Assembly (NCBI GenBank): GCA_020434345.1
Contig: JAGRAZ010000002.1
Span: 1 to 61,734 of the forward strand
From: Bdellovibrionales bacterium
GTDB taxonomy: Bacteria; Bdellovibrionota_G; JALEGL01; JAGRMV01
Direction of reading: 5' to 3'
DNA: 61,734 nucleotides
Shown here: positions 13,537-15,895 of the stretch, one piece after another
Layout: the number at the start of each line of letters is the position of its first letter
Numbering within the stretch: position 1 is the first letter of the stretch
Notes under the pieces: model-generated
Told to the model about the DNA's origin: nothing
Database searches by the model: none
What the model saw: only the letters and a program-made list of their open reading frames with translations
Made by a program: the position numbers and the translations under genes

Positions 13537-14265
13537 ATGTCTAAGACACTTCGTATCAATAAATACCTTGCCCAACTTGGCATTGCTTCTCGAAGAAAAG
13601 CCGACGAGTTACTTGCTCAAGGTCGTGTTTCTATCAATGGAGAAGTGATCAAACAGCATGGTGTACAAGTAGATATTGATCAAGATGAAGTTGAAGTCGA
13701 TGGCGTTGTTGTTGGAAAACCCAACCGAAAAAAGCACTACTACGCACTTTATAAACCCAAAAATGTTGTAACAACAATCTCAGATCCTGAAAAAAGACCT
13801 TGTGTGGGTGATTTAATTAAAACTTTTGACACTCATGTGTTTCCGGTAGGACGACTTGATTTTGACGCTGAGGGGCTTCTTCTATTAACCAATGACGGAG
13901 AAGCATCTAATCGCATGCTACACCCCACCTATCATGTAGAGAAAACGTATCGCGTGAAAGTTAAGGGTGTTCCTAGCAAAGAAACAATGGCAAAACTTGC
14001 AAAAGGAATAAAGCTTGATGATGGATTTATCAAACCGTCTTTTGTGAAACTAGAAAAAATACTTAAAGAAAACTCTTGGATCACCATGACCATAACAGAA
14101 GGTCGAAAACATCTAGTAAAACGTATCTGGCTCCGTCTAGATCACCCTGTTATTCGTTTGGTACGCACTGAATTTGGTCCTATTAAACTACTTGATCTTA
14201 AGCCGGGAGAAGTAAGAAAACTCACCCCCAAAGAAATTCAAAAGATTCAATCAATAGGAGCCTAG
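13537..14265 (+). CDS. rluB: rRNA pseudouridine synthase (RluB/RsuA family)
   Basis: S4 domain (RINKYLA..GIASRRKAD); catalytic PVGRLDFDAEGLLLLTNDG; follows scpB. Confidence 0.88.
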   Translation: MSKTLRINKYLAQLGIASRRKADELLAQGRVSINGEVIKQHGVQVDIDQDEVEVDGVVVGKPNRKKHYYALYKPKNVVTTISDPEKRPCVGDLIKTFDTHVFPVGRLDFDAEGLLLLTNDGEASNRMLHPTYHVEKTYRVKVKGVPSKETMAKLAKGIKLDDGFIKPSFVKLEKILKENSWITMTITEGRKHLVKRIWLRLDHPVIRLVRTEFGPIKLLDLKPGEVRKLTPKEIQKIQSIGA

Positions 14266-14266
14266 T

Positions 14267-15895
14267 ATTTCTAAAGAACTTTTTGGCAAAACGCGTGGAT
14301 TAAGCAAAAAACAAGAAAATGATTTGCTCAAATTGTTTCGTAAGAAAATCCCCACGAAAAAAATTATCACATGGGAATTAAGTAAACACTTATGTGAGTT
14401 ATCCTTTCAACTCGATCGAAATGTTGGAATCATGGTTGATCGACGAGGCTACATTGAAGCTGTTTCTGTAGGCACCAATTTTGACATTGATTTCCCCCTC
14501 CTTACACGTTTGCGAGCCACTTCAACCCGTTTATCAGGCTATCGACTGCTTTTTACAAAACTCAATCAAAAAGGTTTCTCAAAAAAGGATAGGAACATAC
14601 TTTATGACCGACGACTAGATGCCATTGGTTGCATTGAAGTTGAAGACAGAGGACAACCCGGTTTTTTTCATCTTGGCCACCTTAAGCCTGAGGCTTCCGG
14701 TTTTGACTCCATCGAGGAAACAACGTTTGACTCCGCCTTGGACATAGACTTTCCTTTTGATGAATGGGTGGAAAACCTTGAAGATGAGTTTCAAAAAATT
14801 ATTCAAGCTGCGTATGTTTTTGATACAAAAACAAAAGCGATTCTCTGCTACTTGATTACACCTGAAAACAAAGCAAATATTGATGATGAAATTGAAGAGA
14901 CGCTTGAACTAGCCAAAACAGCAGGCTTGTCTATTGTTGGCAAGATTGCGCAAGTACGGCCACAACCTGATCCTAAATATTTTTATGGTAAGGGCAAAGC
15001 CAAGGACTTGGTTCAAGACGTTATCTCTAAAAATGCGGACATGATACTTTTTCATCAGGACTTAACAGCCACCCAATTTCGAATTGTAGGGGATCACACT
15101 GAAGTTCCTATCATTGACAGAACACAACTCATATTAGATATCTTTGCGCAACGAGCAAAAACACACGAAGGGAAACTTCAAGTTGAACTTGCTCAACTTC
15201 AATACACCCTGCCCCGCCTTCGCGAGAAAAACACCCAAATGTCTCGATTGGTCGGTGGCATTGGTGGAAGAGGCCCCGGTGAAACCAAACTTGAAATCCA
15301 TAGAAGACGTGCGCGTGAAAAAGTTGCCAAGCTCCAAAGAGAGATTGATAAAATCAAAGAGACTCGAATGATCAAGAGACAAGCGAGAAACAAAAACAAA
15401 GTACCTATTGTTTCTATTGTTGGCTATACCAACGCGGGAAAATCTACGCTTCTTAATACGTTAACACAATCCAAAGCGCTCGCTGAAGATAAGCTATTTG
15501 CCACCCTTGATCCCTTTTCTAAACGACTTCGTTTTCCTCAGGATCAAGAAATTATTCTTACGGATACAGTAGGATTTATTCGTGATCTACCCCCAGCGCT
15601 CATGGATGCATTTGCAGCAACGCTTGAGGAAATTCGTGACGCTTCACTTATTTTACACCTTATCGATGCATCCAATCCTCATTGTGAAAAGCATATTCAA
15701 ATTGTAGAGCAAATTTTGCATAAGCTTGGTTCATCAGACATCCCTCAAATCAAGGTATTTAATAAAATGGACAATGTAGACCAGCAGATATTGTTCGAAT
15801 TAATACAACGTCACGATGGGATAGGTATCAGTGCTCTTCAACGAAAAACCCTTGGACCACTTATAGAGTACATGCAGGAATGTCTAAAAAACTAA
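14267..15895 (+). CDS. hflX: GTPase HflX, long N-terminal form; probable non-canonical ATT start at 14267
   Basis: IDRTQLILDIFAQRA, GGIGGRGPGETKLE, G1 GYTNAGKS, LFATLD, DTVGF, NKMD. The frame is open from 14258, with SD AGGAG at 14256-14260 6 nt before ATT. The ORF track start (TTG 14324) truncates a conserved-looking N-terminus. Confidence 0.93.
   Translation: MSKELFGKTRGLSKKQENDLLKLFRKKIPTKKIITWELSKHLCELSFQLDRNVGIMVDRRGYIEAVSVGTNFDIDFPLLTRLRATSTRLSGYRLLFTKLNQKGFSKKDRNILYDRRLDAIGCIEVEDRGQPGFFHLGHLKPEASGFDSIEETTFDSALDIDFPFDEWVENLEDEFQKIIQAAYVFDTKTKAILCYLITPENKANIDDEIEETLELAKTAGLSIVGKIAQVRPQPDPKYFYGKGKAKDLVQDVISKNADMILFHQDLTATQFRIVGDHTEVPIIDRTQLILDIFAQRAKTHEGKLQVELAQLQYTLPRLREKNTQMSRLVGGIGGRGPGETKLEIHRRRAREKVAKLQREIDKIKETRMIKRQARNKNKVPIVSIVGYTNAGKSTLLNTLTQSKALAEDKLFATLDPFSKRLRFPQDQEIILTDTVGFIRDLPPALMDAFAATLEEIRDASLILHLIDASNPHCEKHIQIVEQILHKLGSSDIPQIKVFNKMDNVDQQILFELIQRHDGIGISALQRKTLGPLIEYMQECLKN

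Follow-up and report, generated by a model that had tools for sequence, protein, structure and literature searches.

In a 61,734-nucleotide (nt) stretch of DNA from an uncultured wastewater bacterium of the Bdellovibrionales (hereafter the window: positions 1 to 61,734 of contig JAGRAZ010000002.1, assembly GCA_020434345.1), translation of the long-form hflX gene very probably begins at an ATT codon at position 14267. Comparison of the gene with its relatives suggests that this ATT is a conserved and deliberately weak start that would limit synthesis of HflX, a ribosome-splitting GTPase. The codons between ATT and the first canonical start (ATG, GTG or TTG) are coding, and an ATT, ATC or ATA start (collectively ATH) of hflX is spread over at least eight phyla. 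The features on which this reading turns are the following, all on the forward strand and numbered from the first letter of the window.

14255..14257 (+): in-frame TAG closing the hflX frame upstream, so that the earliest possible start is 14258
14256..14260 (+): Shine-Dalgarno (SD) sequence AGGAG, 6 nt before the ATT
14267..14269 (+): ATT, the proposed hflX start codon, with letters confirmed by contigs; the same genus has ATG here
14285..14287 (+): GGC, the codon of glycine 7 (G7), which lies upstream of the first canonical start and is invariant in 93 aligned orthologues
14324..14326 (+): TTG, the first canonical in-frame codon (residue 20), lacking an SD and replaced by CTA in the sister species
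14432..14434 (+): ATG of the public gene call, giving a 487-amino-acid (aa) product with 55 residues cut off
14267..15895 (+): full long-form hflX coding sequence, 542 aa plus stop
14267..14836 (+): N-terminal extension of long-form HflX, about 190 aa, characterized from alignment A3, an AlphaFold2 model, motif counts and structural matches from VIA
13537..14265 (+): rluB-like pseudouridine synthase gene directly upstream of hflX, identified from the open reading frame (ORF) listing and Pfam

The initial annotation had proposed the ATT start from the order of these signals, and the sequence and codon listing bear out each of them: the in-frame stop at 14255-14257, the AGGAG overlapping it, the 6-nt spacing, and the ATT. 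Read in the hflX frame, the order is TAG, GAG CCT AGT, ATT, TCT AAA GAA CTT TTT GGC, with CCTAGT as the spacer; its length falls within the functional SD distance of about 5-9 nt from an ATH codon. The ORF listing gives TTG 14324 as the first canonical codon after the ATT, as had also been claimed. The duplex formed with the 16S tail (ACCUCCUUA) has an energy of -6.5 kcal/mol for ATT 14267, compared with -0.7 kcal/mol for TTG 14324. The SD lies inside the last codons of the rluB-like gene, whose own stop (TAG, 14263-14265) ends one nt before the ATT. That gene is recognized by Pfam PseudoU_synth_2 (E 6e-19) and S4 (E 7e-11), and an rluB-like upstream neighbour of hflX is common to most relatives in the phylum. 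Two other arrangements of this junction were considered and rejected. One is an RNA structure masking the SD: local folding of the RNA at 14215-14330 is weaker than in its own shuffles (z +1.64). The other is an rluB-hflX fusion by frameshift or readthrough: TAG 14255 closes the hflX frame and TAG 14263 the rluB frame, and there is no slippery run between them.

The downstream product is an HflX GTPase, with GTP-bdg_N (residues 207-294), GTP-bdg_M (296-374) and MMR_HSR1 (382-500) in that order at E values of 9e-25, 2e-28 and 6e-22, all past the curated cut-offs. Same-phylum long-form HflX orthologues align from residues 1-7 of a query begun at the ATT. The same-genus orthologue (L033) has GGAG, a 5-nt spacer and an ATG at the ATT position, with MGSELFGKTAGL against ISKELFGKTRGL. 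The N-terminal peptide is MGSELFGKTAGLSKKEE in the sister species and ISKELFGKTRGLSKKQE in the window; 13 of the 19 codons after the start specify the same residue in both species, and five of those 13 differ only synonymously. Where the window has TTG 14324, the sister species has CTA, a codon that cannot serve as a start. Across 93 aligned N-terminal domains G7 is invariant and G11 at least 90% conserved, and both lie upstream of residue 20. The initial annotation had noted a resemblance between the added peptide and the N-terminus of long HflX proteins, and this holds: ISKELFGKTRGLSKKQENDL fits the consensus xxxxxGNTxGLKxSQxxxLERLYRRR of alignment A3.

An AlphaFold2 model built on the 93-sequence alignment points the same way. 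Its predicted local distance difference test score (pLDDT) averages 91.6 and stands at 89 over residues 1-10 and at 98 over residues 11-20; residues 5-7 form a strand and residues 14-25 a helix. A product begun at TTG 14324 or ATG 14432 would be missing these elements of the model. The public gene call (P0001, 487 aa) begins at ATG 14432 and so loses 55 of the 542 residues. A database protein that is 60% identical (P0004, 497 aa) shares the MVDR(K/R)GY beginning of P0001 and is probably N-terminally truncated like it. The window hflX shows these sequence features of starts of the infC and pcnB type: there is no ATG, GTG or TTG between the upstream in-frame stop and demonstrably coding sequence, and the aligned codon of its orthologues is likewise a start, whether ATH or canonical.

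We surveyed the start region at 17 loci of related genomes (our sample of the window's own phylum comprised 17 species genomes) and at 80 long-form loci among the collection matches listed; 95 loci were usable. Each locus was anchored on the invariant G7 by a hidden Markov model of the N-terminal domain (N-domain). Canonical starts were found at 39 of the 95 loci (ATG 24, GTG 10, TTG 5), at positions -3 to -7 from G7 (mode -5) and with a mean SD energy of -3.2 kcal/mol. At 54 loci there was no canonical codon in that range and an ATH codon instead (ATC 26, ATT 16, ATA 12), at positions -4 to -7 (mode again -5) and with a mean SD energy of -8.9 kcal/mol. The comparison of orthologues that the initial annotation called for, ATT versus ATG, thus gives ATG at the same codon within the genus and a majority of ATH starts in the surveyed family, a recurrence that goes beyond coincidence. 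The remaining two loci, L060 (CTG after GGAG) and L098 (ACG after GGAGAAGGAG), lack both kinds of codon where the start should lie, and CTG and ACG are their only near-cognate candidates.

Read upstream from G7, 42 of the 54 ATH loci reach an in-frame stop without passing any canonical codon. The ATH loci include that of a cultivable species, Halodesulfovibrio spirochaetisodalis JC271 (L087, ATA). In several loci the stop abuts the ATH codon, as in L072 (ggaggatataa-ATA) and L091 (aaggaggaataa-ATT). The SD is stronger at ATH loci than at canonical loci (Mann-Whitney p 2e-11 for the two means given above); an energy of -6 kcal/mol or lower is found at 47 of 54 ATH loci versus 9 of 39 canonical loci. 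This gap persists when overlapping gene pairs are left out (-8.6 kcal/mol for ATH versus -3.1 kcal/mol for canonical loci).

With phylum assignments taken from the names in record titles, ATH starts account for 17 of 19 loci in Acidobacteriota, 7 of 8 in Nitrospirota, 8 of 19 in Thermodesulfobacteriota and 7 of 14 in Myxococcota; they were additionally found in single metagenome-assembled genomes of Spirochaetota, Nitrospinota and Aquificota, and in 5 of the 15 long forms of the window's own small phylum. In a FastTree phylogeny of the proteins from G7 onward, the distribution of start states requires at least 15 changes between ATH and canonical, compared with a mean of 29.7 and a minimum of 21 when labels are shuffled; the start state is thus inherited yet often switched. 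A sixth ATH genome of the same phylum and order (G009; locus L017, G009:C2, about 1430-1503) has a short hflX without the N-domain. Its hflX lies directly behind rluB and reads AAGGAG, 7 nt, ATC; the GTPase N-domain is not preceded by any canonical start. The ATH start seems to have outlived loss of the N-terminal extension in G009.

Taken together, homology and predicted structure that reach the ATT, an ATG in the sister species, a TTG without an SD, agreement of the letters among independent assemblies and conservation of ATH in the family support the initial annotation's proposal of AUU initiation for hflX. In the mechanism that we favor, the initiator tRNA would read ATT 14267 as methionine, the AGGAG 6 nt upstream would position the ribosome on it, and there would probably be help from ribosomes fresh from termination at the rluB stop, 1 nt ahead of the ATT. 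The product would be the 542-aa long-form HflX, its first 19 residues supplying the strand and part of the helix in the conserved N-terminal domain. Over evolution, lineages have moved back and forth between ATH with an unusually strong SD and ATG, GTG or TTG that has a weak SD or overlaps the preceding stop.

The ATH codon most likely serves as a deliberately weak start that limits HflX synthesis. Initiation factor 3 (IF3) of E. coli discriminates against AUU, AUC and AUA starts (PMC9723500); since these codons are weak and IF3-discriminated there, HflX synthesis should be held down and should vary inversely with the proofreading capacity of IF3. When IF3 proofreading becomes limiting, HflX synthesis would rise, as it does for E. 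coli class IIA codons. Such a dependence on IF3 and its apparent logic, namely more splitting factor when IF3 is short, may hold here by analogy. The throttling or coupling to initiation fidelity suggested in the initial annotation fits the way in which weak starts are matched with strong SDs across the family.

Several points weigh against this interpretation. The 95 loci are a convenience sample, the collection loci among them coming from a scan with a full-length HflX alignment, and related genomes in the sample do not count as independent cases. At twelve of the 54 ATH loci there is either a canonical codon far upstream or no stop in view. The trait is not essential, since lineages with canonical starts, the sister species among them, thrive without ATH. 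Compensation by the SD may be a sign that selection acts on the expression level alone. Finally, infC of this phylum does not start with ATT, so there is no evident sign here of an IF3 autoregulatory circuit of the E. coli type.

The strongest competing view of what the codon means accepts the ATT start and takes it as a fixed throttle that keeps HflX scarce, in the manner of pcnB or EbpA, with no response to IF3; a strong SD before ATH or a weak one before ATG would then be near-equivalent routes to one expression level. SD strength does offset the start codon across the family, the state has switched at least 15 times, and infC here is not ATT. There is precedent as well: ATT limits EbpA in Enterococcus faecalis (PMC4447247), and the same type of limit is described for pcnB in E. 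coli (Binns and Masters 2002, as cited in PMC3592434). A level alone would be far easier to reach with ATG and a weak SD, however, and ATH occupies the start in 57% of the sampled family against about 0.2% of the large ORFs of this genome; some sensitivity to IF3 is expected in any case from the discrimination established in E. coli. We regard the fixed throttle as a real possibility, short of probable. The extreme enrichment of ATH in the hflX family argues for something more specific. More tentatively, and with less than even odds, the start may be an ancient and repeatedly kept sensor, through which HflX would rise as IF3 proofreading falls relative to 30S subunits; ribosome-splitting capacity would in this way be tied to initiation status in at least nine phyla.

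A different objection concerns how the ribosome arrives at the codon. The ATT might be reached mainly by termination-reinitiation from the rluB TAG at 14263-14265, with free 30S subunits a minor contributor. The 1-nt gap between stop and start favors this, and in reporters about half of the output of an E. coli infC-type junction comes from reinitiation (PMC3592434). At ATH loci as a group, a median of 27 nt separates the start from the upstream same-strand ORF, which is absent within 200 nt at 13 of the 54; the tight -4 overlaps with an upstream gene are instead typical of canonical hflX loci. The strong SDs at ATH loci point to de novo binding of the 30S subunit. Coupling to the upstream gene is no general requirement for an ATH hflX, and we consider reinitiation as the main route doubtful.

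Initiation at a downstream canonical codon, TTG 14324 (523 aa) or ATG 14432 (487 aa), would leave the upstream frame untranslated. TTG 14324 is the first canonical codon, and ATG 14432 is the one that standard gene callers pick (as in P0001). Such a start is very improbable given the conservation of the 19 upstream codons as protein (invariant G7, synonymous differences to the sister species), their ordered structure in the AlphaFold2 model, the negligible SD before the TTG and the CTA at that position in the sister species. In the other ATH loci the canonical downstream starts would strip 6 to 81 residues (median 40).

It is also very unlikely that the ATT is a meaningless product of a lineage with generally relaxed start selection. 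We screened the genome's ORFs of at least 200 codons (n = 1151) for an ATH codon that has an SD of -6 kcal/mol or lower and is separated by 10 codons or more from the first canonical start downstream, which returned three candidates, hflX among them. One, an ATT at G000:C123:3596, is false, with the plain ATG of a CDP-alcohol phosphatidyltransferase-like protein 11 codons later. The other speaks for some relaxation: an SBP_bac_5 periplasmic binding protein gene (G000:C130:1607-3214, + strand; locus L127:208-1815) reads AGGGGAG, 5 nt, ATC, and its signal peptide, 56 codons upstream of the first canonical start, is present only with the ATC start. The SD and ATC ACT are kept at SBP_bac_5 orthologues in two other genera (L130 in G001, L131 in G004), making this gene the likely second non-canonical start of the genome. 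The infC gene (G000:C75:11183-11776, - strand; L126) reads AGAGGAAAG TTA ATT TTG AAA CCA; an ATT start is rejected for it, given the alignment of TTG AAA CCA with GTG AAA CCA of sister genomes, and the infC start is TTG in this genome and GTG or TTG throughout the phylum. Short-form hflX controls from unrelated genomes had canonical starts in 11 of 12 cases. The genome is not generally lax in its choice of start codons, and the hflX trait recurs in at least eight other phyla.

An ATG misassembled or miscalled as ATT is extremely unlikely: the sister species does have ATG and the window is contig 67 of a fragmented, metagenome-type assembly (144 contigs, 1.82 Mb, 88.6% complete), but Logan contigs from three runs in three studies (one of wastewater, 2023, and two of activated sludge, 2016), one of which may be the source of the assembly itself, carry identical ATT letters with no differences over their spans (X1 13948-14800, X3 13999-14800, X5 14040-14467), in agreement with ATT at 14269, where the initial annotation had advised a check, and the ATH state is found in 53 other assemblies, closed chromosomes included.

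Modelling suggests a JAB1/MPN-like fold for the N-terminal extension of long-form HflX, to which the hidden N-terminus belongs. A VIA wide search with the N-domain model gave as its top match PfJAMM1 (5ld9_A; Z 8.0, root-mean-square deviation 3.5, 111 residues aligned), followed by Sst2, RadC, Cap3, Rpn11 and BRCC36 at Z 5-6. Foldseek matches of the N-domain were nearly all MPN proteins and were weak (E 5e-3 or weaker), and the Foldseek search of the model against the PDB gave no match at E 0.001 or better. Pfam RadC and Prok-JAB matches to the N-domain occurred in L022 only and were weak (E 0.013 and 0.045); this locus carries the exact HTHPGGNPHLSSVD motif. An HxH-x6-(S/T)xxD motif, one residue shorter than the classical HxHx7SxxD spacing, is intact in 76 of 93 relatives. 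In the window HflX the corresponding site is degenerate (FTK-x6-SKKD) and lacks the HxHx7SxxD pattern; with FTK in place of HTH, its JAMM-like site is probably inactive. In most phyla the conserved HxH...(S/T)xxD hints at an undescribed hydrolytic or metal-dependent activity that long-form HflX may exert on the ribosome. Our literature search, which left most subscription journals outside its reach, found no paper linking HflX to a JAB or MPN domain.

Nor did that search, with the same coverage, find a paper on an AUU, AUC or AUA start of hflX. An SD-led AUU-class start on a translation-related gene is already known from infC and pcnB. If our reading is correct, public protein sets hold many N-terminally truncated HflX proteins and a conserved domain boundary is hidden in them. 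Alongside infC, hflX would be a gene for a translation factor that is controlled in output as its start codon is decoded, and ribosome splitting or rescue would be linked to IF3 fidelity in a way that can be tested directly; should the sensor proposal also hold, hflX would be the second translation-factor gene read by IF3 after infC. The switches between ATH with a strong SD and canonical codons with a weak SD would offer a natural experiment on the trade-off between start codon and SD.

Among the closest known systems is infC. It has an AUU start with IF3 autoregulation in E. coli and many bacteria (Butler et al. 1986, as cited in PMC3592434). Like infC, hflX encodes a translation factor and has an SD-led start of the AUU class that is kept between distantly related lineages, and it likewise starts a few nt behind a preceding stop (thrS UAA-GGU-AUU for infC, rluB TAG-T-ATT for hflX). 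The E. coli thrS-infC UAA-GGU-AUU junction yields about twice the output of a single-cistron AUU and a quarter of that of AUG (PMC3592434). Unlike infC, hflX alternates between ATH and canonical starts among close relatives, and IF3 control of hflX is something we infer. HflX is moreover not IF3, so any feedback would be indirect.

A second comparison is with pcnB (E. coli poly(A) polymerase I) and ebpA (Enterococcus faecalis; PMC4447247), where a rare ATT limits a protein made in low amounts and where, as for hflX, annotation pipelines chose a downstream ATG. Those are single-species cases, whereas the hflX trait extends over at least nine phyla and uses all three ATH codons.

Finally, long-form HflX shares the GTP-bdg_N, GTP-bdg_M and MMR_HSR1 core with E. 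coli HflX, Listeria HflXr and mycobacterial HflX, and differs from these studied proteins by the added N-terminal domain of about 190 aa with its predicted JAB/MPN-like fold. The studied HflX genes start with ATG, and hflXr is regulated by a leader-peptide attenuator rather than through its start codon.

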